A DNA stretch of 64,000 nt from a virus. The position numbers were made by a program, and so were the translations under genes. Where the stretch lies: the UHGV virus genome UHGV-0018639; one strand, 5' to 3'. The notes beneath the pieces were generated by a model, which was given only the letters and a program-made list of their open reading frames with translations, made no database searches and had not been told where the DNA came from. Each line of letters starts with the position of its first letter. The stretch's first letter is position 1. This document shows, one piece after another, positions 13,493 through 55,857 of this stretch.

Positions 13493-14002
13493 TCAAATTT
13501 TGAGTTCACAAATGTGCGCTTTTTCCAAAGTTTGGTGAACATCTATAAGGCGCTGATTACGAGAGCCACGGAATGGCAAAGTTAAATCACGCTGCTCAAG
13601 AATAAAAGGGCCATCTACCACAACATCGCAAAGTTGGAGTGTTGTTGAAATGCGGCGAGGGGGATTGAAATCCTCCCAGTCCAAGTGGTAGCCAGTATAG
13701 AGCCAAATGTCTTTATTAGGAAATTTTTCTTTGATTTCTCTTAACAACTTATAGATAGTATTGTTGTTTTGTGGCTCAAGTGGATGACCGCCAGAAAGAG
13801 TGATTCCTTTTATCCAAGGCTTTGAAAGAGCGTCAAATAGTTCTTCTTTCGCGGTGTCATCAAAAAGTTTACCTGCGCAGAAATCCCAAGTTTCAGGATT
13901 ATGACATTCTTTGCAATGGAGAGAACATCCTGAAACCCAAAGAACGACACGCACGCCAAGACCATTTGCGATGTCGCATTTTGTTATTTTGATATAATTC
14001 AT
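13493..14002 (-). CDS. nrdG: anaerobic ribonucleoside-triphosphate reductase activating protein (radical SAM)
   Basis: CSLHCKEC (Cx3Cx2C) cluster in VVLWVSGCSLHCKECHNPETW. Start taken as the internal Met MNYIKITKCDIANG, overlapping the nrdD stop. Confidence 0.8.
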   Translation of the reverse strand: MNYIKITKCDIANGLGVRVVLWVSGCSLHCKECHNPETWDFCAGKLFDDTAKEELFDALSKPWIKGITLSGGHPLEPQNNNTIYKLLREIKEKFPNKDIWLYTGYHLDWEDFNPPRRISTTLQLCDVVVDGPFILEQRDLTLPFRGSRNQRLIDVHQTLEKAHICELKI

Positions 14003-14982
14003 TATGATTCTCCCAAATGTAAGACACGCTCTTTTATTTCTTGGGTACGGCCAAAATTCCAAAAATTAGAGCCAATATAGCCGCAAGTACGACGTGCAAC
14101 GTTCAAGGTAGAATGATCACGGTTGCCGCAATTTGGACAATACCACTCCATATTATCATCAATGAGAATTTCGCCATCGAAGCCACATTTCTGACAGTAG
14201 TCGCTCTTTGTATTAAGTTCAGCATACATTATGTTATCATAAATAAACCTATAAAGCTCTAAGACGGCAGGAATATTGTTTTGTAAATTAGGAACCTCTA
14301 CATAGCTTATTGCACCGCCCGGACTAAGTTTTTGAAACTCAGCCTCGAAAGCAAGTTTATCAAAAGCATTGATTTCTTCAAAAACAGGAACATGATAACT
14401 ATTTGTAATATAATTACGGTCATGCCCATCGAGTTTAATAAATATATCATTGCCAAATCGCTGTTTTAGGCAACGCGCAAACTTATATGTTGTACTTTCA
14501 ATAGGAGCACCATAGAGAGAATAATCAATTTTTTCAGCAGCTTTCCATTCAGCACACTTCTCATTTAAACGTGCCATTACTTCAAGAGCAAAAGGTTTCC
14601 CATCAGTCTGTGTATGGCTATGCCTTGTCATATATTTTACGCACTCATAAAGACCAGCATATCCAAGTGAAATTGTTGAATAGCCATTATGAAGCAATTT
14701 ATCAAGCCTCTCACCTTTTTCAAGACGAGCGAGTGCGCCATTTTGCCAAAGAATAGGGGCAACATCACTAAGGGTTCCCTCAAGACGCTTATGTCTAAGT
14801 TGAAGTGCTTTGTGGCATAATTCAGTACGCTCTTCAAATAGCTGCCAAAACTTATCAATATTACCGCCTGAACTAAAAGCTAAATCTGGTAAACTAATTG
14901 TAACAACACCTTGGTTAAAACGACCATAGTATTTTGGGTTATTATTTTCATCAACATAAGGAGTTAGGAAGCTCCTGCACAT
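14002..14982 (-). CDS. nrdD: anaerobic ribonucleoside-triphosphate reductase, exon 2 (C-terminal half with glycyl-radical domain)
   Basis: Glycyl radical motif RRTCGYIGS near the C-terminus. Zn ribbon CQKCG...CPNCG. The exon boundary lies upstream of the listed Met. Confidence 0.8.
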   Translation of the reverse strand: MCRSFLTPYVDENNNPKYYGRFNQGVVTISLPDLAFSSGGNIDKFWQLFEERTELCHKALQLRHKRLEGTLSDVAPILWQNGALARLEKGERLDKLLHNGYSTISLGYAGLYECVKYMTRHSHTQTDGKPFALEVMARLNEKCAEWKAAEKIDYSLYGAPIESTTYKFARCLKQRFGNDIFIKLDGHDRNYITNSYHVPVFEEINAFDKLAFEAEFQKLSPGGAISYVEVPNLQNNIPAVLELYRFIYDNIMYAELNTKSDYCQKCGFDGEILIDDNMEWYCPNCGNRDHSTLNVARRTCGYIGSNFWNFGRTQEIKERVLHLGES

Positions 14983-15742
14983 ATTATCCCATATCCCTAT
15001 GGGTACTGACTATATCTTCATTCCACTAAAAAGTGGAGTTGTCTTCCGCTTCGAGTGAGTGCCTATCTCTCACCCTACTCCCTTACATTCATCAGGGATA
15101 GTCGATACACTTCATTCATCATAATAAAAATTATAAGGAGTATTATTTGTCCGTTGCTGTAAAAGAAAGGTCCTGATACGATGTCTATCAATACCAGTTT
15201 TACGTTCGCATTCTCTCATTGACTTATAGTGAAAACGTTCTTTTGTCTCTTTATTTTCAGCAATTATCCAAATTCCACGCCCTTTATGCGGATTTATATA
15301 ATTGTTTTCCTGATAAGCCTTTCTAATATTTTCGCTGTGAGATACGGCCCGCAAATTAGAAAGTTCATTATGTGATTTATTTCCATCAATATGGTCTACA
15401 ACTGTACAATTATCAAGAAAAACTTCCGCCATAAGGCGATGAACGCGAGTTCGTATTCGATTGCCACCAAGACAAAGAACTACGTGTTGATACATATCAA
15501 TGCCAATATATGGACTAATTATTCTTCCCGTTTTAAAATTGATTATTTGAGCATCTTCATTTATACCAAATTGATTATTCAAACTTGGAATGGGCATAAA
15601 TTCTTTCATTATCTCACCTCCTTTTCATATTTATGATATATGATGAATTTTAGCACGGCCTCATCTGTTCTAGACCTAGCCGTTAGCCGCATTTGCGACA
15701 CCCGCGGGCGCGGTTCAAAAGATTTTATATGAGCTGCAGTTT
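14983..15742 (-). mobile_element. group I intron in nrdD carrying an HNH homing endonuclease ORF (boundaries approximate)
   Basis: About 760 nt separating the two nrdD halves. Non-coding flanks are structured; the flank motif ...gggatagtcgatac... recurs in the ORF-less insertion at 23919-24132. T4 nrdD (sunY) also has a group I intron. Confidence 0.6.
15112..15609 (-). CDS. HNH homing endonuclease (intron-encoded)
   Basis: HIDGNKSHNELSNLRAVSHSEN HNH motif. N-terminal IINFKTGRIISPY is AP2/NUMOD-like. Confidence 0.75.
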   Translation of the reverse strand: MKEFMPIPSLNNQFGINEDAQIINFKTGRIISPYIGIDMYQHVVLCLGGNRIRTRVHRLMAEVFLDNCTVVDHIDGNKSHNELSNLRAVSHSENIRKAYQENNYINPHKGRGIWIIAENKETKERFHYKSMRECERKTGIDRHRIRTFLLQQRTNNTPYNFYYDE

Positions 15743-16927
15743 TCACTTACCCATACAAGGATAACAACGACCCTTACCAGTTTTGTCTTTTTTTAATTCT
15801 AACATCATTTTTTCAGAAATAATATCAGGGACAAGACGCTTTGCTGTACATTTTGCTGCAAGTTCTGTTAAGTAAAAATACTTATCGCCCGGCTGTAAAT
15901 TATCAGGTTCAAGGACATAAAGTAACTTAGGAAATGCAGGCGTAATATAAACGCCTTTTTCATTCTTGAAACCTAAAATACGTTGTTTAATAAACTCCTC
16001 TATCAGCATTGCTAATTCATTCTTATATTCTTCTGTCTCGTTTAAATACATAAATACAGAAAGAAATGGTGCTTGACCATTTGTTGTTGTCATTGAATTG
16101 ACTTGATAGTTGAAAGTCTGAACAGCATCAACAACTTCTTTTTTTGTATCAAGTTGCGCATACTTATGCGCATTCTCATCGTCAAATCCCCAATCTTTAT
16201 ACTTCTTGAGATAAGCTTCATAAGAGCTTCTAACAAAAGGTGCAAGATGTGTAAGAGTAATAGTAGCACCACCATATGAAGAAGAAGCGACGCCAAGAAT
16301 TACTTGCGTTGCAATCGTAGAAGCTGTCAGAATTCTATGCGGCTTTTCAATTTTAACGTTATTAATTACAGTACCATTTTGAAGGACATCCTCTAAGTTA
16401 ATAAGATCGCAATTATGGAGGGTCTTCTGGCCGAAATAATCAATATCGTGGAAATGTATAATACCTTTCTCATGCGCGTCCACAATCTCAGGGGGAAGAA
16501 GAAATCGTTTAGAGATGTCTTCGCTAACAATACCGGCCATATAATCACGCTGTGTCGTTACAAGGTCGGCATTTTTATTTGAATTTTCAGCGTTCCAATA
16601 ATCACTTGTACCACTGATTAGTTCAAGTAAATCTTTGTCTGTTGTATTGCCTTCGCGCGCGAGTCTATGTTTATACCTGTATTCAACATAGCGCTCAGCC
16701 ACGTCTTTTCTTGAACTAGCCATAAGCCGCTCAACTACTAAGTCTTGAATTTCTTCAACGCTCAAATCTCTATTAAGCTTTTCTATTTGAGTAGCCACCA
16801 TTCGTGCCTTATTTTTGGCATAAGATGTTTCACGTCCATCTACTTCCAAAAAGGCTTTGAGAATGGCGACTCTAATTTTCTCTTTATCAAATGGAACCGT
16901 AGTTCCATCACGTTTTATGACGTACAA
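15743..16927 (-). CDS. nrdD: anaerobic ribonucleoside-triphosphate reductase, exon 1 (ATP-cone plus N-terminal catalytic half)
   Basis: ATP-cone VIKRDGTTVPFDKEKIRVAILKAF. Conserved NrdD core GIIHFHDIDYF. Last codons before the stop are probably intron-derived. Confidence 0.8.
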   Translation of the reverse strand: MYVIKRDGTTVPFDKEKIRVAILKAFLEVDGRETSYAKNKARMVATQIEKLNRDLSVEEIQDLVVERLMASSRKDVAERYVEYRYKHRLAREGNTTDKDLLELISGTSDYWNAENSNKNADLVTTQRDYMAGIVSEDISKRFLLPPEIVDAHEKGIIHFHDIDYFGQKTLHNCDLINLEDVLQNGTVINNVKIEKPHRILTASTIATQVILGVASSSYGGATITLTHLAPFVRSSYEAYLKKYKDWGFDDENAHKYAQLDTKKEVVDAVQTFNYQVNSMTTTNGQAPFLSVFMYLNETEEYKNELAMLIEEFIKQRILGFKNEKGVYITPAFPKLLYVLEPDNLQPGDKYFYLTELAAKCTAKRLVPDIISEKMMLELKKDKTGKGRCYPCMGK

Positions 16928-18267: not shown

Positions 18268-19728
18268 TTACTCACCCCTTACATGAGTTGTTATACGGCC
18301 ATATTCATCAATATCTGTTATTTCTTCAACCAGATGGTATGGGGTTCGGGAATATTTCTTCGCCAGAAATCCATCATCCTTTCTAATGCCACATACGATT
18401 ATCTTGTTGCCACGTGAGAAAGTGCTGCGACTGATAACGTGTTTCTTCCCATCAGGCCCTCTCTCCGAAATTTGCTTATCATAATTAGCAAATGCTTCGC
18501 CAAAAATTTTGACCTGAACAACGCCATCTTTTGTCAATAACGAAACAATTTTCTTTGCCTTATCCCTATCCAATACAGTTCCGCAAATACGATGTATTCT
18601 ATAAATCGGAACCGGCGCGCTATCACTATCCTTGCCGCGCGGTTTGAAGTAAGTCTCAACATCAGGCTGCTCTTTCAGTTTGAAGAAGTTTGAAAAGCCT
18701 TGCGCACGTTCATCAACATTTTGAAGTTCATGTTCGTGGAAATAACATGAAACGCTATCCATCTCCCACTTGCTTATTGAACCAAGACAATATTTATTCC
18801 AGATATCTCGCGTTAATCGCTCATTCACGGTATCTAGCAACTCATCATGATTTTCTTTTATCCACTTGCGGACATTATCCATATATTTCTTATAAATTTT
18901 GTCCCAAGCCGTGATGTTAATTTTGAAGCCACTTTCAGTTTCATTGCTTGCGCTCAAACAGTCAAGTGAAAAATTCTTATCAAGGAAATTCAATGCGATA
19001 TTATCTATGCCATAGAATGATGTGTCTAACTTCATTTTCTTGAGATACTTTGTGAAGTTATAAACACGACGCTCAAAATCAAGATTTTCGGGAATCAACC
19101 CAAAGTTTATCAACATTGCCATATTCTGAAGAGTGATACGTTTCTTTGTGTCGCTAATCAGGCTGACATATTCGCGCATTAAATCTACTCTATCACCAAA
19201 TGCATCAAAAGCTCCGCATTTTATGAGGTTTATCATTTGTGGCTTGTTGATTTTTACTTTGGAAAGAAAATCGGAGATTGAGTTATAGGGTCGATTTGCG
19301 ATTATGGATTTAACGATGTCTTCGCCGACTTTGACGATACCGCTCATACCATAACGAATTGTTGAATTTTCAACATCAGGAGAGAAAGTAAAAGTAGATT
19401 TGTTGATATCTGGAGGAGAAACCGAAATACCGGCCATTCGCATTTTACCGATTGCTGATGCAATTTTGCCATAGTTAGTCGTTTTGACTTTTTTCTTTTT
19501 CTTTTTTACATCAATTTTTTCTTCTTCGTCTTCATCTTCGTCGTCATCTTCGGTATCATCAACAAATTCTTCAATACAGTTGTTATAACTATATTCAATA
19601 ATATCTTCTGGCGTTTCGTCATCGTTCTCATCATTTGATTCATTGCCGCCGCTATCGCTAATCAAACACGCGCAATTCCAAAAAATTGTTGGAAAACGAT
19701 ATGCAAGATTCATTTCCTGCAAAGCCAC
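18268..19728 (-). CDS. DNA polymerase III alpha (DnaE-like), C-terminal portion (fingers/HhH/OB)
   Basis: GISVSPPDINKSTFTF matches the DnaE (V/I)LPPDIN.S..F motif. Long acidic linker. C-terminal OB-like region. Confidence 0.6.
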   Translation of the reverse strand: MALQEMNLAYRFPTIFWNCACLISDSGGNESNDENDDETPEDIIEYSYNNCIEEFVDDTEDDDEDEDEEEKIDVKKKKKKVKTTNYGKIASAIGKMRMAGISVSPPDINKSTFTFSPDVENSTIRYGMSGIVKVGEDIVKSIIANRPYNSISDFLSKVKINKPQMINLIKCGAFDAFGDRVDLMREYVSLISDTKKRITLQNMAMLINFGLIPENLDFERRVYNFTKYLKKMKLDTSFYGIDNIALNFLDKNFSLDCLSASNETESGFKINITAWDKIYKKYMDNVRKWIKENHDELLDTVNERLTRDIWNKYCLGSISKWEMDSVSCYFHEHELQNVDERAQGFSNFFKLKEQPDVETYFKPRGKDSDSAPVPIYRIHRICGTVLDRDKAKKIVSLLTKDGVVQVKIFGEAFANYDKQISERGPDGKKHVISRSTFSRGNKIIVCGIRKDDGFLAKKYSRTPYHLVEEITDIDEYGRITTHVRGE

Positions 19729-20855
19729 AAGCGAGTAGGAAAGAGTATGTGCTCGACAACTTACCGCACATAGTTTCTTATGCCAGATTTACTCTGTTGC
19801 GGTCTGGACTATACCATCAATTTCATTGTTTCCAATGAAAAAGTCCTTATTATAGTCTCTGAACGTTTTTCTTATCTCAATATATTTTCTATTCATACCA
19901 AAAGGCTTATTATAAACTAGAGCGATTAGTTTTAGGATATTGAACTGATTAGCGGTTTCAACTCTATATAAGCTATCTTCAGTTTTTCTTATATGTAAAT
20001 CTTCCATAAAGAAATTTTCTACTAAGATTTTTTCAATCCATTTGATAAATTCTTCAGATGCTGATACTATATAAAATTGAGCACCGCCATAAGAAGTTTT
20101 ACTGACACACCCATCACCGTCTATTATACCACGAATAATGTAAGGCAAATATCGCTTTTCTTGCTCATACAATTGCGGCGCCGGTATAATATATGTTTTA
20201 TTCTTTATTATACCATAACGGGCAGCCTCAGCTTGAAGACCCGGCCTATTTATCAATACCCTATATCGAGTTTGCTTTCCAGCTTGAGGATAGGCCTTAT
20301 AAGTTATTCCAATTCCTTTAGCTATAAAAGCAATAACATCTTCGTCCACCATATCCAACCCTAAGCCATCTCGATCGCTCAATAGATATCCATCCGTAAG
20401 CAGTAGCCCGATTAGATATGCATCGAACGGACTTTTGATTTCAGATAACGAATAGGTATATCCTCGACGATTATCTTGCGCTTGCCGTATAATTTCTTGA
20501 TATTCATCTGGATAATACTTTTTTACCTTGTCGGTTATAGACTTCTTTGTTTTATAACCATATCGACCCATTAGCTCTGAAACCGATGCCCCATTCTTAT
20601 ATTCTTCAACTAATTTTAGTTCATCTTCTTTTGATATTTTCTGATAACCCATAGTATATCCCTCCTAAGAATAAGTAGCCCTATTCAAATAGAAATACAC
20701 TAAAATAAGAAACTTCGCTGCGGATTATCCAATTCTAAATGATTTTACTATACCCTCTCTCTTTCTGAGAGGCCGCGATATTATTGCTAATATCGTTTAG
20801 TTATTTAGACTCTAAGGAAGTCCCCGCAATTTCAAGGATTTATACTCGTCTTGTA
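19729..20855 (-). mobile_element. intervening sequence in DnaE-like gene carrying a LAGLIDADG endonuclease (probable group I intron; boundaries approximate)
   Basis: Polymerase N- and C-terminal parts are contiguous ORFs on the same strand separated by ~1.1 kb. About 200 nt of structured non-coding flank lies at 20653-20855. Confidence 0.45.
19789..20652 (-). CDS. LAGLIDADG homing endonuclease (double-motif)
   Basis: Two LAGLIDADG motifs: LIGLLLTDGYL and IIRGIIDGDGCV. N-terminal HTH-like region. Confidence 0.8.
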   Translation of the reverse strand: MGYQKISKEDELKLVEEYKNGASVSELMGRYGYKTKKSITDKVKKYYPDEYQEIIRQAQDNRRGYTYSLSEIKSPFDAYLIGLLLTDGYLLSDRDGLGLDMVDEDVIAFIAKGIGITYKAYPQAGKQTRYRVLINRPGLQAEAARYGIIKNKTYIIPAPQLYEQEKRYLPYIIRGIIDGDGCVSKTSYGGAQFYIVSASEEFIKWIEKILVENFFMEDLHIRKTEDSLYRVETANQFNILKLIALVYNKPFGMNRKYIEIRKTFRDYNKDFFIGNNEIDGIVQTATE

Positions 20856-23360
20856 TTAGTCAAACGAGTACCCGCGCTGAACTCTGAACAAAACGTCCCA
20901 TACATAATGGGCAAAAGTCATATCACAACCTTTTTCTTTTGCATTTTCAAAATAGGCTTTTTCACATTCATCAAAGAGTTTGCCTTGTTTTTTTGCAATT
21001 GCCTTTCGACATTTATCTGCAAAAGTCAGATTATTCCCTCCGAGTCTTTCTTCCTGCAGAAGCTGCATCATTCCTTCTTGACTCTCACATATGCCACTCG
21101 TTATCGCATTATGTCCAATTAACCATTTTATATCTTCATTTTTTAATCCATATTGAATCATTTCGTCTCGCCATTCATTGATATTCAAACGATATCTTGC
21201 CCACATATCAAGTGGCTGCTCAGCTCCTTTTTCAGGAGCCATTAGACGAATTACTGAATTCAAAACAGCTAATTCACTAACGTTTTTAGGATGAGTTAGC
21301 GCTATGCCAGAAATGCCGCTCGGTTGTTCCATTTGAAACAAACTGGATATCTTATGATTCCAAACCATTTCCCACATTTCTGGTGCAGTTCGTTCAAGAT
21401 TATATATGCCAATTACACTTTCATAAGTTTCACGTAATGTTGGCTTTCGCTCTATATAACCATAATCACATAACAAATCTAGCTCATTGTGTATTTTATC
21501 AAGAGCTTCAATTGACAACATATCAATTTTGATCAGCGATGCGTCCTCCGCATCATGGAGTTCAAAAGCCGTAATGACCGTGCCATCAGGCGCGCGTGTT
21601 AGCGCTGTCGATTCCGTAAAAGGCTCGTCAACGAAGATCACTCCACCGGCGTGGACGCCAATGCCACAAATTAACCCCTCAATTTTTGAAGCAACTTCCC
21701 AAACATCACTGTAGGTTTTCATTGCTTCAACAAATTGCTTTACTGGCTTAAAACCTTTATCTTCATCACCCTCTATACATTGGGTAAGTGAGCGAAGTTG
21801 CCCGCGATCAGCTGGAATCAGAGATGCCAAATAGGATGCTACATCAACATCAATTCCCAAGCCACGGCAGGCCGTTAGAATTGCTGATTTAGATTTTTCT
21901 GTTTTGAATGTAATAACATTCGCAACTCTGTCTTCCCCATAAAACTCACGGAATTTCTGTAAAACTTGTGCACGACGTCCGCCTTCAATATCAGTATCAA
22001 CGTCCAATACCGACGCACGTTCGGGATTAAGAAAACGCCAATGAAATACTTGAGTTTCTTCTTGAATTGGATTTATCTGTGTTATATCTAATGCATATAA
22101 CAAAATAAATCCTGCACCTGAACCACGCCCCGGCCCAACAAGAGAACCAGCTTCCCAACATAAATCAATATTTTTCTGCAGATTCAGAAAATAAGTCGAC
22201 CAATGCGTGTGATTTGTTATCGACGAACGCCATGTATCATCAAGACAAATATTTATCTCATCATACGCTCGTTTGTTCTGCAAACCCGGCTTCCGTTGGA
22301 TGCCGTCAATAATCGCCCAAACCAGTTTTCTATCACCCCAATAATCAGAGTTATAGAAAGTTTCTAAATAAGGAATTTCATGTTTGAGAATATCATATGC
22401 TGCCTCATCTTCAGGAAATGTTTTCCAATAAAGTTCTGGAATTTTTAAGGGGCGCATTAGTGAAAAATCTTCACACATTTCACCTATCTTGAGAATATTA
22501 TAATATGCAACTTGAAGTTGTTCTTCGGTGAAATAATCGAAATACTCTTCTATTTCTTTCGTATTCATAAGATACGTAGTAGCATAGAAATCATCTACTT
22601 CTCGTTCACCATTCTGTGCATTGAGATATGCCTTATGAATCGCGCGATCTTCTTTTTTGAGATAATGGCTATCAGTTGTTATAACATAAGAAATGTCGTA
22701 TTTAGCTGATAATTCAAGCAACTTTTTATTTACATAAATTTGTTCTTTGTTATGACTTGGTTGCATTTCAAAAAAGAAATTACCGTGCCCAAAAAGTTTA
22801 TCCAAAGATAAAATCCAATTTTCAATTTTGCTATTGAGCGAGCTATCATTTCGTGCTTTGAGAAGCTGAGTAGGAAGACAGCCACCGAGGCAAGCTGTCA
22901 TTCCCACAATGTGTCCCGGATTAGCCCCTACGATTTCAAACAAATCACTATAATAAGTTGGCATACGACGCATACCACGCGCCATATAACTACGTAATCC
23001 TGCACGAGTAGATAATTCTCTAATTTGTTTATGCCCAATCGCGTCTTTTGCTAACAAAATAAAGTGATAATATTTATCTTGTCCTGTAATAAAATTCGAT
23101 GCATTTAACCCATTTCGACAAAGATAAATTTCATTTCCTTGAATAAATTTGAAATCAGGGTATTTTTCTTTTACTTTTTTATAATACTTTTCTGCCTTAA
23201 TCGCGCCAGATATTGACTCATGGTCTGTAAGAGCGACGACTTTATGACCCAACTCGATGGCGCGATCAATTAGGTCTGAGACTTTTATTATACAGTCTCG
23301 AAGCCTTTCATTAGAATAATCCGAGTGGTTATGTAATGACCCCGGATACGGAATATTCAA
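20856..23360 (-). CDS. DNA polymerase III alpha (DnaE-like), N-terminal portion (PHP and polymerase core)
   Basis: PHP domain start NIPYPGSLHNHSDYSNERL...ALTDHESISG. 834 aa. Consensus promoter upstream at 23393-23421. Confidence 0.8.
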   Translation of the reverse strand: MNIPYPGSLHNHSDYSNERLRDCIIKVSDLIDRAIELGHKVVALTDHESISGAIKAEKYYKKVKEKYPDFKFIQGNEIYLCRNGLNASNFITGQDKYYHFILLAKDAIGHKQIRELSTRAGLRSYMARGMRRMPTYYSDLFEIVGANPGHIVGMTACLGGCLPTQLLKARNDSSLNSKIENWILSLDKLFGHGNFFFEMQPSHNKEQIYVNKKLLELSAKYDISYVITTDSHYLKKEDRAIHKAYLNAQNGEREVDDFYATTYLMNTKEIEEYFDYFTEEQLQVAYYNILKIGEMCEDFSLMRPLKIPELYWKTFPEDEAAYDILKHEIPYLETFYNSDYWGDRKLVWAIIDGIQRKPGLQNKRAYDEINICLDDTWRSSITNHTHWSTYFLNLQKNIDLCWEAGSLVGPGRGSGAGFILLYALDITQINPIQEETQVFHWRFLNPERASVLDVDTDIEGGRRAQVLQKFREFYGEDRVANVITFKTEKSKSAILTACRGLGIDVDVASYLASLIPADRGQLRSLTQCIEGDEDKGFKPVKQFVEAMKTYSDVWEVASKIEGLICGIGVHAGGVIFVDEPFTESTALTRAPDGTVITAFELHDAEDASLIKIDMLSIEALDKIHNELDLLCDYGYIERKPTLRETYESVIGIYNLERTAPEMWEMVWNHKISSLFQMEQPSGISGIALTHPKNVSELAVLNSVIRLMAPEKGAEQPLDMWARYRLNINEWRDEMIQYGLKNEDIKWLIGHNAITSGICESQEGMMQLLQEERLGGNNLTFADKCRKAIAKKQGKLFDECEKAYFENAKEKGCDMTFAHYVWDVLFRVQRGYSFD

Positions 23361-23423: not shown

Positions 23424-23918
23424 TCAAAAACTCCACTCCGCGTTTTCAACTTCAACGTCTACGATTTGCAATTGTGGGGTATAATTTCCAAGCCATTCGT
23501 TGACATTCGGCTTGCCCACAATCGTTAAACACATTTCAGGCCATTTGTGAAGTTTTTCAATCAAATCTTTCGCACGGAACTTTATGTAAGTAATTCCATT
23601 CTTTTCAATTCGTATCGTGTCTTGACTCTTACCAATTATCTTTACATCCGCAGGTCTTATGTAAAGGTTTGTTATCGCCATAAGACTTTGAGGATTGTTC
23701 TGACCCCAAACTCTCTCATATCGCGCGAGGTCGAATATGATGTTGGATATATCATTGTCGCTTGCTTTGCGGACAAAATCGACGTCGTAATTATTATCGC
23801 CAAAATCGTAAGCCACGAGTTGAGTGTTAGATAAGGCAAGAAGTTCATTATAGCTATTAGCTGGAATGGCAAACCCAGCTGCATTAGCGTGCGTGTAATC
23901 CCTTGTTTCCAAGGGCAC
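23424..23918 (-). CDS. RecJ-like DHH nuclease, exon 2 (DHHA1 C-terminal part)
   Basis: THANAAGF matches the DHHA1 GGGHxxAAG motif. The listed start is GTG inside the probable intron 3' end. Confidence 0.5.
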   Translation of the reverse strand: MPLETRDYTHANAAGFAIPANSYNELLALSNTQLVAYDFGDNNYDVDFVRKASDNDISNIIFDLARYERVWGQNNPQSLMAITNLYIRPADVKIIGKSQDTIRIEKNGITYIKFRAKDLIEKLHKWPEMCLTIVGKPNVNEWLGNYTPQLQIVDVEVENAEWSF

Positions 23919-24132
23919 TGACTATTTCTTACATATGTAAAACATATGAATACCCATTTCGGGCGGCGTACCAATAGCCGTCCTACTTCTCCGATTCGAG
24001 AATAGTCGATACAGGTTCCTTGTCGTATGACAAGTCTTCCCACGAGATTAGCATATCTTTCGACTTAGCTTTCCTCGTTAGCCGCGAATGCGACCCCACT
24101 GGTAAGTGGAAAAGGTATAACGGGCCAATTCC
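23919..24132 (-). mobile_element. ORF-less group I intron-like insertion in RecJ-like gene
   Basis: 214-nt non-coding insert. It shares sequence blocks with the nrdD intron flanks: gcactgactatttctt, cgattcgagaatagtcgatac, cgttagccgcgaatgcgacc. Confidence 0.55.
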
Positions 24133-25383
24133 TCAACCCTGTACGTAATCAAATAAACTAGTATCTAACAAATAATCCTTGAACGACGTAAGCGCGCTCT
24201 GTGAAAGACCTCTAATACTTCCCTTTATCATTCCATCGGGGCCTTCGCGGCCTATCATTGTAGGCTTATGATACCGCGCGCTAAGCTGTGTTGCAATCAA
24301 ACCATTCAACTCAGGCGGGAAGTTATCATCGTCATCAAGTTTTACAAATAAAATTTTGTTTTCAAGTAAATCATACTTATGTATCTTATACTCAAGTTGC
24401 TCAGTTGCTTTTTCTTTTGCTTTATCTTGGTGCGACTTCGCGTTCGTACATTCGCGTGCACTTTCGATTGCAAGCTTTTCAAGAGTCCCCTTCGCACCAC
24501 GCTTGCCGCTAGGCACAAGTTCCTCACCAGCAACAACTGCACGATAGAGACGTTTTTTCTCATCTTGTGAACCTACACGTATCATTGCGTTGATAAGCGG
24601 CGTTATGTAAAATGCGACAGTTGTTGGATTGACCTCGCCGCCCATTGAGTAGGACTGCTTTTCAACAAGAGTTTTGAGGAAAAAGTTTCGTATGTTGGCA
24701 CAACCTTGCTGGACAATGAACTGATTTTCGTATGATAGCATACTTACCATATCACTTATAATACCCAACGCCGCTAAGTCAATATATTCCCAAGCCCAAT
24801 TATGGCCAAACGCATCATCAAGCGCACGGCAGAACTGCCACACGACACCAGCGCCGCACAGGTCTTTGTTCTGATAAGCGGGGCTTGTCTGATTGTTTAT
24901 TAGAATCATATTAGGCGGAATTTCGCTTGTGGGTTCTAATTCGTGGTGGTCGATGCAGAGCACGGGACAGTCTAACTGTTTGATATACTCACCATCGTTA
25001 GTTCCCGCGTCCGGGACTATGACACCGCTCCAACTATGTTCAAGCAACTTATCCATCACATCACTACAACCGTGCTGTTTGCCGCTGTGTATTATCTGTA
25101 TAATATGCTTTACGGGATTGAGTCGCTTTATGTATTGATAAATAATGCCGCTTGACGTCAAGCCGTCCGCATCACAATCACAAATTAGCCCCAGTGGATT
25201 TTCATCATTCAAGTTTTGTCTGATAAAATCAATACCTTCATCTATATTATCCAGCGCGCGGTAACTCTGTAAGCACGACTCATCAGGATTCAAGAACAGA
25301 TCAACGTCTTCAATTCCTCTCAATCGTAAAATTTGTTCTCCATAGTTTTCATATATTCCATCGTTTGTCAATTTATATTTCAC
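24133..25383 (-). CDS. RecJ-like DHH-family phosphoesterase/exonuclease, exon 1
   Basis: DHH motifs LICDCDADGLTS and VLCIDHHE. Confidence 0.7.
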   Translation of the reverse strand: MKYKLTNDGIYENYGEQILRLRGIEDVDLFLNPDESCLQSYRALDNIDEGIDFIRQNLNDENPLGLICDCDADGLTSSGIIYQYIKRLNPVKHIIQIIHSGKQHGCSDVMDKLLEHSWSGVIVPDAGTNDGEYIKQLDCPVLCIDHHELEPTSEIPPNMILINNQTSPAYQNKDLCGAGVVWQFCRALDDAFGHNWAWEYIDLAALGIISDMVSMLSYENQFIVQQGCANIRNFFLKTLVEKQSYSMGGEVNPTTVAFYITPLINAMIRVGSQDEKKRLYRAVVAGEELVPSGKRGAKGTLEKLAIESARECTNAKSHQDKAKEKATEQLEYKIHKYDLLENKILFVKLDDDDNFPPELNGLIATQLSARYHKPTMIGREGPDGMIKGSIRGLSQSALTSFKDYLLDTSLFDYVQG

Positions 25384-50348: not shown

Positions 50349-50434
50349 GCGGGACTGGTGTAATTGGTAGCCACATTTGATTTAAGCTCAAATGGCCTTT
50401 GGTCGTAAGGGTTCGAGTCCCTTGTCCCGCACCA
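50349..50434 (+). tRNA. tRNA-Leu(UAA), type II
   Basis: Acceptor gcgggac/gtcccgc. Anticodon arm tttga-tttaagc-tcaaa. Long variable arm. 3' CCA encoded. Confidence 0.7.
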
Positions 50435-50501
50435 ATTGCCGTTTTCAGTGGCGGCTTAGAAACAGTTCTCAAAGAAGTATCAAAAAGAAAGGAGAAAATG
50501 A

Positions 50502-51404
50502 ATGTCATTTTTCGTAAGAACAGTAACTGATCGGTATGGGGATACAAATACTTATCCTCGTTGGGGCAGAATAGTGGGGTGCGCTATAGGGGCACTACTT
50601 GTTCTAATTATAATTCTCTCTTGTTTTACTAAAGTTCCTACTGGCAATACTGGTATTGTCACTACATTTGGTAAGGTTGAGAATTATACATTGGATTCAG
50701 GCTTTCATCTAAAAGCTCCGTGGCAGAAGATAGTTAAGATGGATAATCGAGTACAGAAGCAGAGTATTGATTTGATGTGTTTCTCTTCTGATATTCAGGA
50801 AGTCTCTATGACTTATACAATTAACTTCCAGATTAGTAAGAGCGATGCAATGACGATTTATTCTACCATCGGCACTCATTATTATGAAACCGTTATTATG
50901 CCTTGTATTACCGAGTCAGTTAAGACAGTTTGTGCACGATATACCGCAGAAGAGCTAGTGGGCATGAGAAGTGAACTTGCTTCAGCAATAGAGGAAGATC
51001 TTTCTGAGAAATTAATTAATTACAACATAGAGCTTGTTTCTACTTCTGTTGAGAACATGGATTTCACTGATGTCTTTACTGATGCTGTTGAAGCAAAGCA
51101 GGTTGCAGCACAGAATAAGCTCACCGCACAGACTCGTGCTGAGCAGGAAGTTATTGAAGCCGAAGCAGCGGCTAAGGTTCAGGTAATTCAGGCACAGGCT
51201 GATGCAGATGCAATGGTGGCTAAGGCTCAGGCCGAAGCAGAAGCGACTCGAATTCGTGCAGAAGCCGAAGCAGAAGCCAACGCGAAGGTTGCCGCGTCTC
51301 TAACAAATGCGCTAATTGATTATACTTATGCACAGCATTGGGATGGTAAGTATCCTACCTATTATGGTGGTAATGGTACGACTCCTGTTATCGATCTTAG
51401 ATAA
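50502..51404 (+). CDS. SPFH/band-7 (prohibitin/HflC-like) membrane protein
   Basis: N-terminal TM. VPTGNTGIVTTFGKV..GFHLKAPWQKIVKMDNRVQ SPFH core. Ala/Glu-rich coiled-coil tail. Confidence 0.65.
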   Translation: MSFFVRTVTDRYGDTNTYPRWGRIVGCAIGALLVLIIILSCFTKVPTGNTGIVTTFGKVENYTLDSGFHLKAPWQKIVKMDNRVQKQSIDLMCFSSDIQEVSMTYTINFQISKSDAMTIYSTIGTHYYETVIMPCITESVKTVCARYTAEELVGMRSELASAIEEDLSEKLINYNIELVSTSVENMDFTDVFTDAVEAKQVAAQNKLTAQTRAEQEVIEAEAAAKVQVIQAQADADAMVAKAQAEAEATRIRAEAEAEANAKVAASLTNALIDYTYAQHWDGKYPTYYGGNGTTPVIDLR

Positions 51405-51643
51405 ATAAATGAGCTGGCATCTCAATAAACTGCCATTAATATGGGTCAGTAGCGAATCGGCAAACGCAACGGGCTGTAAACCCGTCTCCTTCGGGAATAA
51501 TTGGATCGACACCAATCTGACTCACCAAGACGCAGCGGGTGTTAGATTTTCTACTGGGGAATACTGTGTCTAATATAGAGAAAATCATTTTTGTGAAATT
51601 CAAGTATATTCTAGCTAAATATACCGTAAAAGCCGGATTATAT

Positions 51644-51719
51644 GCCCAGATAGCTCAGTTGGTAGAGCAGGGGACTGAAAATTCCCGTGTCGCTGGTCCA
51701 ATTCCAGCTCTGGGCACCA
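51644..51719 (+). tRNA. tRNA-Phe(GAA)
   Basis: gcccaga acceptor. D-arm gctcagttggtagagc. Anticodon loop ctGAAaa. T-arm gctggtccaattccagc. CCA encoded. Confidence 0.8.
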
Positions 51720-51891
51720 TTTTGGGATTGTTTACTGCTTCTTGTTCCCTTGATCGTGAAAATGCATGAGTAGCGATTAAAAAACATCTAAGCGGCGTGC
51801 ATCGTTGGCCATCTGAGGGCTGCGTTAAGGCTTAAAAGGCCACAATCGATTGGGGTTGGTAAACCTCCTGCGGGGAAGCTTCCATTATTAT

Positions 51892-51974
51892 GGGCAAGTG
51901 GTGGAACTGGTAGACACAACAGTCTTAGACGCTGTCGCTTCGGTATAGGGGTTCGAGTCCCCTCCTGCCCACCA
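51892..51974 (+). tRNA. tRNA-Leu(UAG), type II
   Basis: Anticodon arm acagt-ctTAGac-gctgt. Long variable arm. T-arm ggggttcgagtcccc. One A-C mismatch in the acceptor stem. Confidence 0.6.
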
Positions 51975-52094
51975 TAAGTCTCCAAGAGGATGGATTTCGG
52001 CTAAACTACCACCGGCGCACAATGTGTGATATGTGGCTTTGTCATTTGTGGAGACTATAATAAATAAAAACGAAAGTAAGCCGACTTTTGAAAT

Positions 52095-52178
52095 GCAGGA
52101 TTGGTGGAATTGGCAGACACGGTGGATTCAAGTCCCACTGCTTTTAGCATAAGAGTTCAAGTCTCTTATCCTGCACCA
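52095..52178 (+). tRNA. type II tRNA, probably tRNA-Leu(CAA)
   Basis: Acceptor gcaggat/atcctgc. Leu-like D-arm tggtggaattggcagacac. Anticodon loop ttCAAgt with one mismatch closing the stem. Long variable arm. Confidence 0.55.
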
Positions 52179-52307
52179 TTGGTGGTCACTAGGGTTGTAT
52201 TCTTCTCAAGCCAAGTGAGTAGTGTTGATGAAACGAAATAGATGGTAAACAAATAATTGAGATTAAGTATGCAACCCGTTGTATTATTTTAATGAAAGGA
52301 GATAAAA

Positions 52308-52892
52308 ATGTCAGCAAATTTTTATATTAGCGATATCCATTTTGGGCATAAAAATATAATAAAATTTGATCATCGTCCTTTTAGTAGTGTTGATGAAATG
52401 AACAGCATACTTATTGCAAATTGGAATGATATAGTTGGTCACAATGATAATATCTACGTTCTTGGTGATTTTTGCTGGGGTAAATCTGATGAGTGGATTG
52501 ATATTCTGTCTCAACTCAAAGGTAATAAGTATCTCATTGCTGGTAATCACGACTTGCGTAATCCTCCTTCAGATGTGCGGCGTTTCTTTCAGGATTGGCG
52601 CGACTACAAAGAAATTTTTGACAATGGCCGCAAGGTTATAATGTGCCATTATCCAATTCCGTTCTATAAGTCAGACTATAATTCAGATACTTATATGTTG
52701 TTTGGTCATTTGCACACAACATTTGAGAATGGGTATATTGAGGATTTGCGCGAACGGATAGAGCACGATCCATATGAGCGTTCAGCAAAAAATCTTTGCC
52801 AGTTTTATAACGTTGGTTGTATGATGCCTTGGATGGAATACAAGCCGCACACGTTGGATGAGATTGTTGAGGGGTTTGGTAAATATCACTAA
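52308..52892 (+). CDS. calcineurin-like metallophosphoesterase
   Basis: DIHFGH, LGDFCWG, GNHDL, CHYP..GHLH motifs. RBS aaaggagat. Confidence 0.7.
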   Translation: MSANFYISDIHFGHKNIIKFDHRPFSSVDEMNSILIANWNDIVGHNDNIYVLGDFCWGKSDEWIDILSQLKGNKYLIAGNHDLRNPPSDVRRFFQDWRDYKEIFDNGRKVIMCHYPIPFYKSDYNSDTYMLFGHLHTTFENGYIEDLRERIEHDPYERSAKNLCQFYNVGCMMPWMEYKPHTLDEIVEGFGKYH

Positions 52893-52902
52893 ACCCACAT
52901 AT

Positions 52903-52991
52903 GCGGGATGAACTCAGACGGCTCTGAGACCGGTCTTGAAAACCGTGGGCAGGTGAAAGCTTGTGGGGATCGACACCTCCGTCCCGCGCCA
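52903..52991 (+). tRNA. atypical type II tRNA-Ser(UGA) with 8/4-like acceptor/T-stem and 6-bp D-stem (allo-tRNA/tRNA-Sec-like architecture)
   Basis: Anticodon arm ccggt-cttgaaa-accg is nearly identical to E. coli tRNA-Ser(UGA). The 5' gcgggatg pairs with cgtcccgc (8 bp). D-arm ctcaga-cggc-tctgag is a 6-bp stem with a 4-nt loop. The variable arm is 20 nt. T-stem gggg/cctc is 4 bp with T-loop atcgaca. Ends gCCA. Confidence 0.6.
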
Positions 52992-53087
52992 GTATGCGGA
53001 GTCAACCAGTAAGGTGCTGGACTCGCCTGCTAAGCGATGTGTAGCTATTCGGCTATTTGGTTCGTGTCCAAGGCTCCGCGCCAATAT

Positions 53088-53163
53088 GTGTCCTTAGTCC
53101 AATCGGTAGAACAACAGACTGTTAATCTGTAGGGTATAGGTTCAAATCCTATAGGACACGCCA
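53088..53163 (+). tRNA. tRNA-Asn(GUU)
   Basis: Acceptor gtgtcct/aggacac. Anticodon arm acaga-ctGTTaa-tctgt. T-arm ataggttcaaatcctat. CCA encoded. Confidence 0.75.
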
Positions 53164-53166
53164 TAT

Positions 53167-53243
53167 GCGCCATTAGCTCAGTTGGTAGTAGCACTTGATT
53201 TTTAATCAAGGAGTCCGCGGTTCAAGTCCGCGATGGCGCACCA
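53167..53243 (+). tRNA. tRNA-Lys(UUU)
   Basis: Acceptor gcgccat/atggcgc. Anticodon arm cttga-ttTTTaa-tcaag. T-arm cgcggttcaagtccgcg. CCA encoded. Confidence 0.75.
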
Positions 53244-53264
53244 TAATTTTTGGAGGAAGTAAAA

Positions 53265-54385
53265 TGAAATTAACAGAAAAGGGGGTTGCCGCGTTTGCCG
53301 CAGCGTTAGAGCACTGCCCCAATGAATCTTTTTCAGCGGCCAGCCTTTCAGCAAAGTGCGGCGCCTCTATTTCTGCAGCTACACTCAATGGTATTGTCAA
53401 TCAGGGACTTATGACTCGACTTGGTGGTTCGCCTGTCAAGTTTGAATTAGTGCCTAACGCGAAAGACTTGTATAGCAAGGCGCGCGAAGATAAGCCAGCC
53501 AACGAAAATCTTCGTAAAGCACAGGCCGCGAAAAATGATGAGTTTTATACTCGGTATCAGGATATCGAAAAAGAAGTCTTACAGTATGACTTGCGTGGCA
53601 AAAAGATTCTGTGCAATTGCAATGATGGGTTAGATAGTGAATTTACAAATTTCTTTATGGCAAATTTTGAAGCACTTGGACTCGCCGAAGTCGTTTGTCT
53701 GAGTTATGAGAAAGAAAAGCTTGCTTTCAAAACGGTTAGGCGCACACCCACAAAGCCCGATATAAAAGTTGAAGTAGCACGGATTCCCCTTAAAGGAAAC
53801 GGGGCTTTTGATTCATGCGAAGGTCGAGAAGCTTTAGCGGCCTGTGATGTTGTTATCACTAATCCGCCGTTCAGTCGGTTTCGTGAATTTGTCAATTTGA
53901 TTTTGTCTTACAAGAAAGACTTTTTGATAATTGGCAGTAAAAACGCTATTACTTATAAAGAGTTCTTTCCTCTTCTAATGAATGGCAAAGTTCATATTGG
54001 CAATTATAATGTTTCTACTTTTAAACAGCCCGATGATACTGAGAAGAGATTTGGAAACATTGGTTGGTTTACGACCCTTCCTGTCGCAAAGGCCACACAG
54101 CCAATTCCTTTAACAGCAACCTACGATTCCGTCAATTATCCTGCCTATGATAATTTTCATGCAATCGAGGTAAGCCGCACAGCTAACATTCCAAAAGATT
54201 ATGATGGTGTGATGGGCGTTCCTATTTCATTCCTTGATAAGTTTTGTCCTACTCAATTTAAAATTGTTGGATGGAGCAGACATAATGATGAAGGAATGGA
54301 CGGCGGATATTGGACGGGCGGTTGTGCAGATGCTACTATAAATGGTAAACGAGTTTATCGTAGAATTTTGATTCAGAAAATTTGA
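53265..54385 (+). CDS. N6-adenine DNA methyltransferase
   Basis: Catalytic motif IV DVVITNPPFS. AdoMet-binding-like ILCNCNDG. RBS ggaggaag upstream of MKLTEKG. The ORF-track start at 53195 lies inside tRNA-Lys and was rejected. Confidence 0.6.
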
Positions 54386-54410
54386 TTTTTATCAAAATTT
54401 TCGATATAAT
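54382..54410 (+). promoter_or_regulatory. sigma70-like promoter (conserved phage motif)
   Basis: aaaaTTTGATTtttatcaaaattttcgaTATAATatatatagaaagttgagag. Confidence 0.55.
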
Positions 54411-54553
54411 ATATATAGAAAGTTGAGAGAAATGGTTCTAACAAGCCAGCGTGCGCGCGAGTAAAAGTTGTTAGTAAGCGGTTGGCATACGTGATAAGCC
54501 ATTGCCCCAGCGAGAAGATTTAATAAATCTTCTTTGTTGGCGGTGTTCAATTT

Positions 54554-54627
54554 CGGGGATGTGGTGTAATGGTAGCACACTTGATTTGGGGTCAAGAAGA
54601 GTGGTTCAAATCCAACATTTCCGGCCA
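54554..54627 (+). tRNA. tRNA-Pro(UGG)
   Basis: Anticodon arm cttga-ttTGGgg-tcaag. Acceptor cggggat/atttccg with two G-U pairs. Imperfect T-stem. CCA encoded. Confidence 0.55.
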
Positions 54628-54634
54628 TAAAAAT

Positions 54635-54721
54635 GCTGAGTTCCCATAGTGGTCGATTGGAGCGGTTTTGTAAGCCGCAGACTTCGTGTCCGCATCAGTT
54701 CGAATCTGATACTCAGCTCCA
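54635..54721 (+). tRNA. 87-nt tRNA with long variable arm and UGU (Thr-type) anticodon in the 7-nt loop register
   Basis: Perfect acceptor gctgagt/actcagc. Perfect T-arm atcag-ttcgaat-ctgat. Anticodon arm gcggt-ttTGTaa-gccgc, which needs a U-G closing pair; GUA lies one nt 3'. 15-nt variable region agacttcgtgtccgc. CCA encoded. Confidence 0.55.
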
Positions 54722-54725
54722 CTAT

Positions 54726-54801
54726 AAGAGAGTAGCCCAATAGGTAAGGCAGCAGTCTCCAAAACTGAAGATTAAAGGTTCAATTCCTTTCTCTCTTGCC
54801 A
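54726..54801 (+). tRNA. tRNA-Trp(CCA)
   Basis: Acceptor aagagag/ctctctt. Anticodon loop ctCCAaa. T-arm aaaggttcaattccttt. CCA encoded. Confidence 0.65.
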
Positions 54802-54843
54802 ACAATTTCATTTTTTCATTTTTCAAATTTCCTTTCTTAAAAT

Positions 54844-54872
54844 TTGACTTTTTCAAAAAATCTTGATATAAT
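54844..54872 (+). promoter_or_regulatory. sigma70-like promoter driving the large noncoding region and tRNA-Met
   Basis: aaaaTTTGACTttttcaaaaaatcttgaTATAATatatac. Perfect -35 and -10 boxes with a 17-nt spacer. Confidence 0.6.
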
Positions 54873-54896
54873 ATATACATAAGATAAAGAAAAGAA

Positions 54897-55616
54897 AAAG
54901 TCAAAAGGAGGACGATGCTAGTGCCACCTACACGTGGTATCCTCTGTTTTCGCTAAGAGCGCTGGCATATATTCAATTAAATAATACTAACTCAGTGAAG
55001 ACGGAATTCGATGTTCCGGCTGAGAAATTCTAGCTAGCACAGCAGAAACGAAACAAGGATACTTGTGGATACTGGACTGGGAGGCCATCGAGAGATGAGC
55101 CGAAGTAGAGCGGTTGCTCAAGTGGGAAGAAGAGCAGGAATTGTGCTGAGTGAATCGCAAGTAAACGCAGCCGTGGAGTGGCGGGCGCAATAGATAGCTT
55201 GGTGAATAGCCAAGCCGAATCCAAGTTAGGTTTTAGTTGGTGACTGTGACAATCCTTGGAAAAGCCAATAAGCTCGTTCCGTTGAGACGACAGGGAATGT
55301 GAAATCTGTCTTTGACACTCTACAGTATCCGAGTAGCGGAACACAACGGGGACTTTAGATTAAAAAGATGTTGACAGTAATAGAAATTACTACTTTCTGA
55401 ACATCCCGTGAAAGGTAGAGGTAATCAATCCTCTGGCGGATTAGGCGACATTAGACACTTGGGGTTATCCAAGACTAACAAGTCAATGTTGTTGCTGGGG
55501 TAAGAAGTGTATGGGCGACGGCCTGTATGCTCAGACTTATCTCCCGCGTGGCAGAATATGCTTGAAGGTTTATCGAGGTAGGGCGAAGGCCCAGTAATAT
55601 TTAGTTGGATTTATAT
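54897..55616 (+). ncRNA. candidate large structured noncoding RNA (about 720 nt) co-transcribed with tRNA-Met
   Basis: No credible ORF. GC content is locally elevated with many local hairpins. Strong consensus promoter upstream. tRNA and terminator immediately downstream. Context matches that reported for GOLLD/ROOL-class large phage ncRNAs. Confidence 0.35.
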
Positions 55617-55689
55617 GGCAGGAAGAGAAGGTTCTCCGTTTGGCCTCATAAGCCAGACTTCGTAGGTTCGATTCCTACTCCTGCAACCA
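55617..55689 (+). tRNA. tRNA-Met(CAU) (possibly initiator-like; alternatively a lysidine tRNA-Ile2)
   Basis: Anticodon arm tttggc-ctCATaa-gccaga. T-arm gtaggttcgattcctac. Acceptor ggcagga/tcctgca with a 1:72 G-A mismatch. CCA encoded. Confidence 0.6.
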
Positions 55690-55714
55690 AGGAAGATGCT
55701 TCTTCCTCCGTTTT
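55690..55714 (+). terminator. rho-independent terminator
   Basis: ggaaga-tgc-ttcttcc followed by tccgtttt. Confidence 0.55.
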
Positions 55715-55857
55715 AAAAAATGTCTTGAACGACAGGAGGTTTTGCTTATGGACATAACAAAATCTAATGAGGACTTTAGTCCAACGAACAAGGCAAAGAG
55801 TTGGGCTTCTCTATAAAAAAGCCCTCGTTTAAAAAAAATGAAAGGAAGTAAGAAAAA

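Follow-up and report, generated by a model that had tools for sequence, protein, structure and literature searches.

A probable mobile group I intron, with its own LAGLIDADG endonuclease gene, in the DnaE-type polymerase gene of an uncultured phage

What separates the two halves of a DNA polymerase gene in the virus genome UHGV-0018639? The window analysed here, by which we mean the whole 64,000-nucleotide (nt) stretch of that genome, carries three minus-strand open reading frames (ORFs) at this locus, of 834, 287 and 486 amino acids (aa). The 834-aa ORF (20856..23360) matches the Pfam families PHP, DNA_pol3_alpha and DNA_pol3_finger, the 486-aa ORF (18268..19728) matches HHH_6 and contains the motif SPPDINKS, and the ORF-to-ORF gap between them (19729..20855) measures 1,127 nt, 263 of which are non-coding. 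An earlier reading, made from the letters alone and called here the sequence-only reading, had described this layout as a PHP/polymerase-core ORF and a PPDINKS ORF on one strand, about 1.1 kb apart with about 260 nt of non-coding flank, and all of these elements are indeed present, on the minus strand. It took the gap to be an intron, and we agree: the insert is very probably a mobile group I intron, lodged in the fingers motif of a DnaE-type replicative polymerase gene that resembles yorL of phage SPbeta.

To answer the question we begin with the polymerase itself. In a tblastn search against phage records, residues 10-833 of the first ORF match SPBc2 at 106948-109473 and residues 1-486 of the second match it at 109504-110847. 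Both polymerase ORFs fall in the single uninterrupted gene yorL, with exactly 10 codons between the two matches. These 10 codons (CRAHTLSYSL) are found in the window, in frame, upstream of the mechanical GTG start of the second ORF. Exon 1, whose mechanical start is the TTG at 23360, encodes the PHP, palm and fingers domains and ends at the second base of codon F833, 7 nt inside the 834-aa ORF. Exon 2 begins 31 nt upstream of the mechanical GTG and opens with the third base of F833, followed by CRAHTLSYSL and then by the helix-hairpin-helix and C-terminal domains. Joining position 20863 to position 19759 yields a 1,329-aa protein that aligns with YorL from end to end at 37% identity. The junction, GYSF followed by CRAHTLSY, is ungapped against YorL (GYSFCRAHTLSYSLVALQEM opposite GYSFSLLHTLAYSIIALQEL) and against E. 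coli Pol III alpha (GYGF followed by NKSHSAAYALV), where the insertion would fall between F756 and N757 of the fingers domain. The insertion site is in fact a strongly conserved fingers motif, GY(S/G)F-xxxH, interrupted after its F. Aligning the concatenated exons to DnaE, as the sequence-only reading had proposed, thereby locates the insertion codon (F833). In nucleotides, the ligated-exon junction expected from the sequence is UACUCGUU followed by UUGUCGAGC (also written GGGUACUCGUU followed by UUGUCGAGCACAU).

Does the gene also exist without the insert? We scanned IMG/VR contigs with a 201-aa fragment of the spliced junction as query and found it continuous in L049 (99%), in L044 (95%), and in L045-L048, L050 and L054 (70-86%). 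The intron is absent from L044-L050, L054 and L056. In blastn comparisons with L044-L050 and L054, window positions 20863 and 19759 are adjacent, give or take a 1-nt ambiguity (a T), which sets the length of the insertion at exactly 1,103 nt. The boundary itself settles at 20862..19760 once the base preceding the 5' splice site has to be a U and the last base of the intron a G. The gap seen by the sequence-only reading is real, and only its edges had to move, from 20855..19729 to these positions. The uncultured relative L049 is the most telling, as its uninterrupted DnaE matches the spliced product in one alignment over residues 1-1329 at 96.2% identity. Together, the adjacent junction bases and this continuous gene exclude that the two halves correspond to non-contiguous or overlapping regions of DnaE, an outcome that would have spoken against an intron. 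The intron-less site reads CGCGGGTACTCGTTTTGTCGAGCACATAC; in alleles of the L045/L047 type it is TACTCATT followed by TTGTCGTGC, and in those of the L049 type TATTCATT followed by CTGCCGCGC.

What kind of element, then, is inserted? Its two ends resemble the two halves of a group I ribozyme. When small windows are scanned with the group I model RF00028, two minus-strand partial matches appear, one at 20677-20828 (model positions 60-139, P4-P6, 15.2 bits) and one at 19794-19900 (model positions 107-253, P6' to P9, 12.0 bits); they are collinear, lie on the correct strand and flank the endonuclease ORF. The gathering score is missed because this ORF, carried in an 831-nt P6a loop, splits the core, and on our analysis the sub-threshold score is a matter of an inserted loop, not of a missing core. 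In ORF-bearing phage introns, Rfam matches are likewise broken into partial ones by the ORF (PMC11878797). The 5' half of the ribozyme spans intron nt 1-157 (20862..20706) and the 3' half nt 989-1103 (19874..19760). The intron starts with UGACUAA, which places an in-frame TAA stop two codons past the 5' splice site, and ends with GGUAAG, its terminal G being position 19760. Both splice sites find partners in the intron: GUACUCGUU, at the end of exon 1, pairs with GACGAGUAU in the internal guide to form a P1 of 9 bp, with a U·G pair at the 5' splice site contributed by the last exon U (20863), and the first bases of exon 2 (UUGU, 19759..19756) form a 4-bp P10 with the ACAA immediately 5' of the P1 guide.

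The fold is supported by covariation. Through the endonuclease homologues we assembled 23 distinct homologous introns, removed the ORF loop and aligned them with MAFFT. From this alignment RNAalifold alone predicts P3, P4, P5, P5a, P5b, P5c, P6, P6a, P8 and P9, with two hairpins within P9, and 42 of the 64 predicted pairs show compensatory changes. Once the P7 pseudoknot is added, 97.8% of cells form standard pairs, as against 36-42% when the partners are slid by 1-3 columns, and changes on both sides are seen in 43 of 68 pairs; none of 500 shuffles reached the observed values. P7 itself displays a G-C to A-U double change beside its bulged base. P6/P6a is taken to close across the ORF, given that GCG/CGU is replaced by GCA/UGU and that the P6a pairs covary, while the Rfam 3' match and covariation place P6', P7, P3' and P8 within the 3' end of the endonuclease ORF. 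Since MAFFT misaligned P1, this helix was scored sequence by sequence, and in the relatives guide and exon change in concert (UUCGUU/GACGAA, GGCUUU/GAAGCC, GGAUUU/GAAUCC, CUCCUU/GGGGAG and GGGUU/GACCC). The minimum free energy fold of the ORF-deleted window intron, at -90.4 kcal/mol (z -5.07), recovers P1, P4-P6a, P7 and P8. Two other placements were tried and rejected: a P3' at AGGGAU with P7 as UUCUUA/UAAGAA near the ORF start, which the Rfam 3' match and covariation disfavour, and a P6 closed upstream of the ORF (GGGCU, from the Rfam 5' match), which gave way to closure across the ORF.

To explain these results we propose that a single pre-mRNA would be transcribed across the whole polymerase gene. 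Within it the intron would fold, its internal guide base-pairing on one side with the last bases of exon 1 (P1, whose U·G marks the cleavage site) and on the other with the first bases of exon 2 (P10). Splicing would take the established group I route, in which an external guanosine attacks the 5' splice site, the terminal G docks in P7, and ligation of the exons yields an mRNA encoding one 1,329-aa polymerase. Unspliced RNA would give nothing but the truncated 834-aa product, because a stop lies two codons into the intron. The endonuclease, made from its own ribosome-binding site, would act as characterised homing endonucleases do and cut the intron-less polymerase site in co-infecting relatives, and repair from the intron-bearing copy would install the intron, with a short stretch of flanking exon, in the cut genome.

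Can the encoded protein play this part? The double-motif LAGLIDADG enzyme announced by the sequence-only reading is there, with the motifs LIGLLLTDGY (D87) and IIRGIIDGDGC (D180), and both aspartates are invariant in 17 homologues. The protein matches the PHROG 4645 endonuclease and, over its second half only, Pfam LAGLIDADG_3 (E 7e-10). An AlphaFold2 model (predicted local distance difference test score, pLDDT, 77.9) shows a pseudo-symmetric single-chain LAGLIDADG fold of two domains, and a Foldseek search of the PDB ranks I-Tsp061I first (E 1.2e-7), then bI3 maturase, I-AniI, PI-PfuI, I-DmoI and I-SceI, all with probability 1.00. In the model, this core is preceded by a predicted four-helix N-terminal segment of about 65 aa. 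The family is large: 586 homologues were found, all of them metagenomic, hundreds of which are intact at 66-91% identity. A sequence search of the PDB returned a chance match only (E 0.8), an exact-sequence look-up found no record, and a scan of GTDB genomes for the family found no relative. The gene has a Shine-Dalgarno sequence, which sits with the ATG in the P6a loop, and nearly all aligned relatives carry GGAGG at the equivalent place. A promoter scan ahead of the gene gave no signal above chance, and the endonuclease is therefore probably translated from the pre-mRNA or from the excised intron.

The 3' end of this gene and the ribozyme core share the same nucleotides. The last 28 codons of the endonuclease and its stop (ending in RKTFRDYNKDFFIGNNEIDGIVQTATE) double as P6a', P6', J6/7, P7, P3', P8, J8/7, P7' and part of P9. 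The overlap encodes the nearly invariant peptides RKTFRDYN and DGIVQT, and at codons 260-270 homologues with the same amino acid use the identical codon in 0.91 of pairs, versus 0.50-0.62 across the rest of the ORF. Such codon identity is as a constraint acting on RNA and protein alike would predict. The endonuclease ORF also shares its frame with exon 2, a single TAA (19789..19791) and 29 nt of intron standing between them; a single point mutation would suffice to join them. This shared frame is probably a coincidence of the core overlap. One could also imagine the overlap as a switch, in which translation of the endonuclease unfolds the core and blocks splicing, while the protein itself helps the RNA to fold, the latter suggested by the presence of bI3 maturase and I-AniI among the closest folds. 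If true, any one RNA molecule could serve either to make the endonuclease or to mature the polymerase, but not both, and the protein would be the first LAGLIDADG maturase of a phage, since we know of none. We regard this idea as speculative and rather improbable. The data show an overlap that is real, conserved and constrained at both levels, RNA and protein, and no more than that.

Is the intron mobile? In the genomic contexts of the endonuclease homologues, the same ORF stands between two DnaE halves. About 34 contigs carry the same intron and endonuclease gene at residue 833, to within 1 nt, in DnaE genes 31-80% identical to that of the window, and phages whose polymerases are 96% identical can differ in having or lacking the intron. 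This presence and absence at one site among related contigs points to an intron that is, or recently was, mobile. The window intron is 87.6% identical to those of L002, L008 and L021, while the flanking exons are 62-84% identical. Compared with L049, the closest intron-less allele, exon 1 is 94-99% identical but drops to 67% over its last 21 nt; there it is 90-95% identical to the intron-bearing relatives, and every difference is synonymous. On sequence grounds this pattern looks like a short co-conversion tract. The intact endonuclease of the window is likely to be active, judging from its sequence.

Other variants of the system are seen among the relatives. In five contigs (L009, L013, L015, L016 and L035) premature stops shorten the endonuclease ORF to 11-118 codons, with the pairings of the ribozyme intact; the endonuclease genes look decayed, and the introns around them probably still splice. 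Two intron subfamilies with homologous endonucleases occupy the same site, their insertion points 1 nt apart: one, without P2, has its 5' splice site behind the second base of codon F833 (the window, L002, L003, L008, L009 and L016), and the other, with a P2 hairpin, after the third base (L006, L010, L012, L013, L015, L022, L023 and others). Further insertions interrupt DnaE in L003, L004, L005, L016, L019, L020, L021, L025, L027 and L035, at about residues 450, 507, 568, 608, 790 and 925 in window numbering, the one near residue 450 carrying a GIY-YIG ORF in L003 and L004. With up to three interruptions per DnaE gene among these relatives, the polymerase gene appears from these sequences to be an insertion hot spot in the lineage.

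Several observations weigh against a mobile group I intron. A scan at the Rfam gathering level (RF00028, 50 bits) finds nothing at the DnaE locus; the cmsearch with RF00028 suggested by the sequence-only reading stays below the gathering score on the native sequence, and each of its two partial matches has an E of about 0.6 in small searches. P1 pairing with the cognate exon averages 6.4 bp, a modest margin over the 4.7 bp of non-cognate combinations. The alignment constructs were cut by hand around conserved motifs, and MAFFT partly misaligned P8 as well as P1. The co-conversion signal amounts to 21 nt, and selection for P1 to pair, or target-site escape in L049, could explain it instead. Finally, the endonuclease ORF is truncated in 5 of 25 relatives, as in the decay phase of a homing cycle.

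That last observation leads to the alternative that survives best, a variant of our main explanation in which a true group I intron has lost its mobility and its LAGLIDADG protein is now a maturase or on its way to decay. It draws further on the presence of bI3 maturase and the bifunctional I-AniI among the best fold matches, and on the 87.6% identity to the nearest sampled relative, which means that none of the sampled donors passed it on very recently. It is nevertheless unlikely. The window ORF is full length, with both motif aspartates in place and invariant across homologues; intact homologues number in the hundreds; and presence/absence polymorphism is found among phages with nearly identical polymerases. 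Moreover, relatives whose ORF is truncated have kept the ribozyme pairings, meaning that the fold is maintained without an intact protein.

Could the gene instead have undergone fission, an endonuclease cassette having split it into two genes whose separate polypeptides assemble into a two-subunit polymerase? Two long ORFs around a nuclease gene are the typical look of a fission, and a native sequence scoring below the RF00028 gathering level adds to the resemblance. The gp43 polymerase is split in this manner in some T4-like phages. A working two-subunit precedent is nrdA of phage Aeh1, split by mobE (PMC3045599). For the window we consider fission very improbable. The true 5' end of exon 2 has neither a start codon nor a Shine-Dalgarno sequence, its first in-frame GTG being 10 codons inside the conserved motif; the insert is absent, to the base, in close relatives; and a conserved group I core with P1 and P10 pairings to both exons would be purposeless in a free-standing cassette. 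A polymerase genuinely made as two subunits, which would have overturned the intron proposed by the sequence-only reading, is therefore not what the predicted fold of the insert and the intron-less relative suggest.

The two remaining alternatives can be dealt with quickly. An assembly artefact or chimeric contig might be feared in a window that apparently comes from an uncultured, metagenome-derived phage and whose locus has no megablast match among isolated phages, but more than 30 contigs, which stem from different samples and different assemblers (Logan, ENA, IMG/VR), share the same architecture, leaving this explanation a negligible chance. An intein or other protein-level element, which might come to mind as inteins often contain LAGLIDADG enzymes and classically occur in DnaE, and as a Cys follows the junction, is refuted by the reading frames, as had been recognised from the stop codons at the outset: a TAA lies two codons past the junction and another between the endonuclease ORF and exon 2, the endonuclease ORF is out of frame with exon 1 and has its own Shine-Dalgarno sequence and ATG, and a Pfam search finds no Hint or intein splicing domain.

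Table 1. Coordinates of the polymerase exons, the predicted group I intron and its elements in the window.
Feature	Position	Strand	Basis or remark
Exon 1, DnaE-type (YorL-like) polymerase	20863..23360	-	Pfam PHP, DNA_pol3_alpha, DNA_pol3_finger; tblastn; intron-less alleles
Predicted group I intron, 1,103 nt	19760..20862	-	Intron-less alleles; RF00028 partial matches; covariation
Exon 2, polymerase	18268..19759	-	tblastn to YorL; full-length alignment; Pfam HHH_6
P1 exon strand GUACUCGUU	20863..20871	-	Per-sequence pairing search
Internal guide sequence, ACAA then GACGAGUAU	20842..20854	-	Pairing search
5' half of ribozyme core	20706..20838	-	RNAalifold consensus; pair counts; single-sequence fold
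P3, 5' strand	20838..20834	-	
P4	20828..20823 with 20724..20719	-	
P5 and P5a	in 5' half	-	
P5b (GCAA loop)	20795..20776	-	
P5c	20772..20754	-	
P6, 5' strand	20718..20716	-	
P6a, 5' strand	20712..20706	-	
Shine-Dalgarno sequence AGGAGGG	20660..20666	-	Sequence; 7 nt upstream of the endonuclease ATG, in P6a loop
Predicted homing endonuclease gene, 287 aa	19789..20652	-	LAGLIDADG_3; PHROG 4645; homologues; AlphaFold2; Foldseek; ATG at 20652
Dual-coding stretch, 86 nt	19789..19874	-	Coordinates; peptide conservation; codon identity
3' half of ribozyme core	19760..19874	-	RF00028 partial match (model 107-253); covariation
P6a, 3' strand	19874..19868	-	
P6, 3' strand	19865..19863	-	Followed by J6/7
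P7, 5' strand	19859..19853	-	Bulged A
P3, 3' strand	19848..19844	-	
P8	19843..19818	-	Followed by J8/7
P7, 3' strand	19811..19806	-	
P9	19803..19799 with 19767..19763	-	Encloses two hairpins

The genomic surroundings of the polymerase gene recall those in SPbeta. The gene order is DnaB-like helicase, unknown gene, RecJ-like exonuclease, DnaE, unknown gene and NrdD, and it resembles yorI-yorL of SPbeta, which shares the succession of helicase, unknown gene, RecJ-like exonuclease and DnaE-type polymerase. The phage lineage of the window is uncultured: its related contigs come from ruminant gut samples, and a GTDB scan with the polymerase returned two contigs only, from metagenome-assembled genomes of buffalo cecum and rumen.

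Three other genes of the window, those for RecJ, NrdD and PhoH, appear to be split by group I introns. The sequence-only reading had counted the DnaE interruption as the third in a replication gene, and this remark holds, with interruptions also seen in two further genes of this module, the RecJ-like and the NrdD-like one. The RecJ-like gene is divided into ORFs 24133..25383 and 23424..23918, both on the minus strand, which match positions 1-409 and 410-560 of PHROG 2484. Between its parts lies a gap of about 260 nt (23899..24157, minus strand) without any ORF, to which the full length of the RF00028 model aligns with 30.9 bits (E 2.4e-6 in a 291-nt search), a match that lies below the gathering level and that the whole-window scan missed; the gap is thus a probable group I intron of the ORF-less sort. 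The NrdD-like anaerobic ribonucleotide reductase gene extends over 14002..16927 on the minus strand. Its first part (15743..16927) matches positions 4-383 of the 718 in PHROG 487, its last part (14002..14982) matches Pfam NRDD at positions 264-562 together with Gly_radical, and its interior contains an HNH endonuclease ORF (15112..15609) and a partial RF00028 match (14987..15173, 20.9 bits). This interruption looks like a second ORF-bearing group I intron. On the plus strand, a full-length RF00028 match above the gathering score (57971..58189, 88 bits) stands directly upstream of a PhoH-like ORF (58205..58738) whose Pfam match begins at profile position 34, which suggests that an ORF-less group I intron interrupts the PhoH gene close to its 5' end. 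The window also encodes a ROOL RNA (RF03087; 54967..55612, plus strand; 268.9 bits, E 2e-60), a large structured RNA of unknown function, which lies inside a tRNA array (50349..56919) of at least 11 tRNA genes.

How does this intron compare with those of better known phages? The td intron of T4 interrupts a DNA-metabolism gene, meets an in-frame stop just inside the intron and carries the ORF of I-TevI in its P6a loop; when it homes, flanking exon sequence is co-converted. The ORF of I-TevI, an enzyme of the GIY-YIG type, lies wholly within the loop, whereas the LAGLIDADG ORF of the window reaches 86 nt into the P6a'-P9 core. T4-type introns have P7.1 and P7.2 in places where the window intron has no helix, between P7 and P3' and between P3' and P8, and the subfamily of the window intron is the one without P2. 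The SPbeta group is a known refuge of group I introns in nucleotide-metabolism genes (the bnrdE/bnrdF introns, with an intein), but SPbeta yorL itself has no intron at the site used in the window, the two polymerases being 37% identical. The endonuclease model shares with I-Tsp061I, I-DmoI, I-AniI, I-SceI and bI3 maturase a pseudo-dimeric alpha-beta-beta-alpha-beta-beta-alpha fold, and with single-chain LAGLIDADG enzymes two LAGLIDADG helices that both terminate in an acidic residue. It differs from the five named proteins, which are archaeal or organellar, in coming from a phage genome, in its low identity to them (11-19%) and in its additional four-helix N-terminal segment.

The closest parallels are the group I introns found in the DNA polymerase genes of the Bacillus phages SPO1, SP82 and Bastille and of the Bastillevirinae (PMC11878797). 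The window intron shares with them an endonuclease gene in a peripheral loop, an overlap of nuclease and ribozyme, and the occurrence of several introns per gene in some relatives (PMC11878797). The host genes are different, as those polymerases belong to family A (PolA-like) and that of the window to family C (DnaE/YorL-like). So are the enzymes, which in SPO1 and the Bastillevirinae are mostly HNH nicking endonucleases (I-HmuI, I-BasI), with LAGLIDADG in 1 of about 45 Bastillevirinae introns (PMC11878797). Splicing has been demonstrated by experiment for the SPO1/Bastillevirinae introns, whereas for the window intron it is deduced from the sequence. Our searches of the literature at hand turned up no earlier description of a group I intron inside a DnaE-type polymerase gene of a phage.

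Group I introns with homing endonucleases have been known in phage polymerase genes since SPO1, and this one will not surprise a specialist; it leaves the understanding of group I introns and homing endonucleases unchanged. It does extend the range of group I introns in phage replication genes from family A to a family C polymerase, and it changes how the locus should be annotated, the polymerase being one spliced gene for a 1,329-aa protein instead of two proteins and a hypothetical ORF. It also brings to light a large, previously unnamed LAGLIDADG family, the 586 metagenomic homologues, with one target site in every context examined. Such endonucleases recognise long sites in a conserved gene and may offer raw material for meganuclease engineering. 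Finally, the intron-plus, intron-minus and decayed-endonuclease alleles of this lineage make up a natural sample of the homing cycle.

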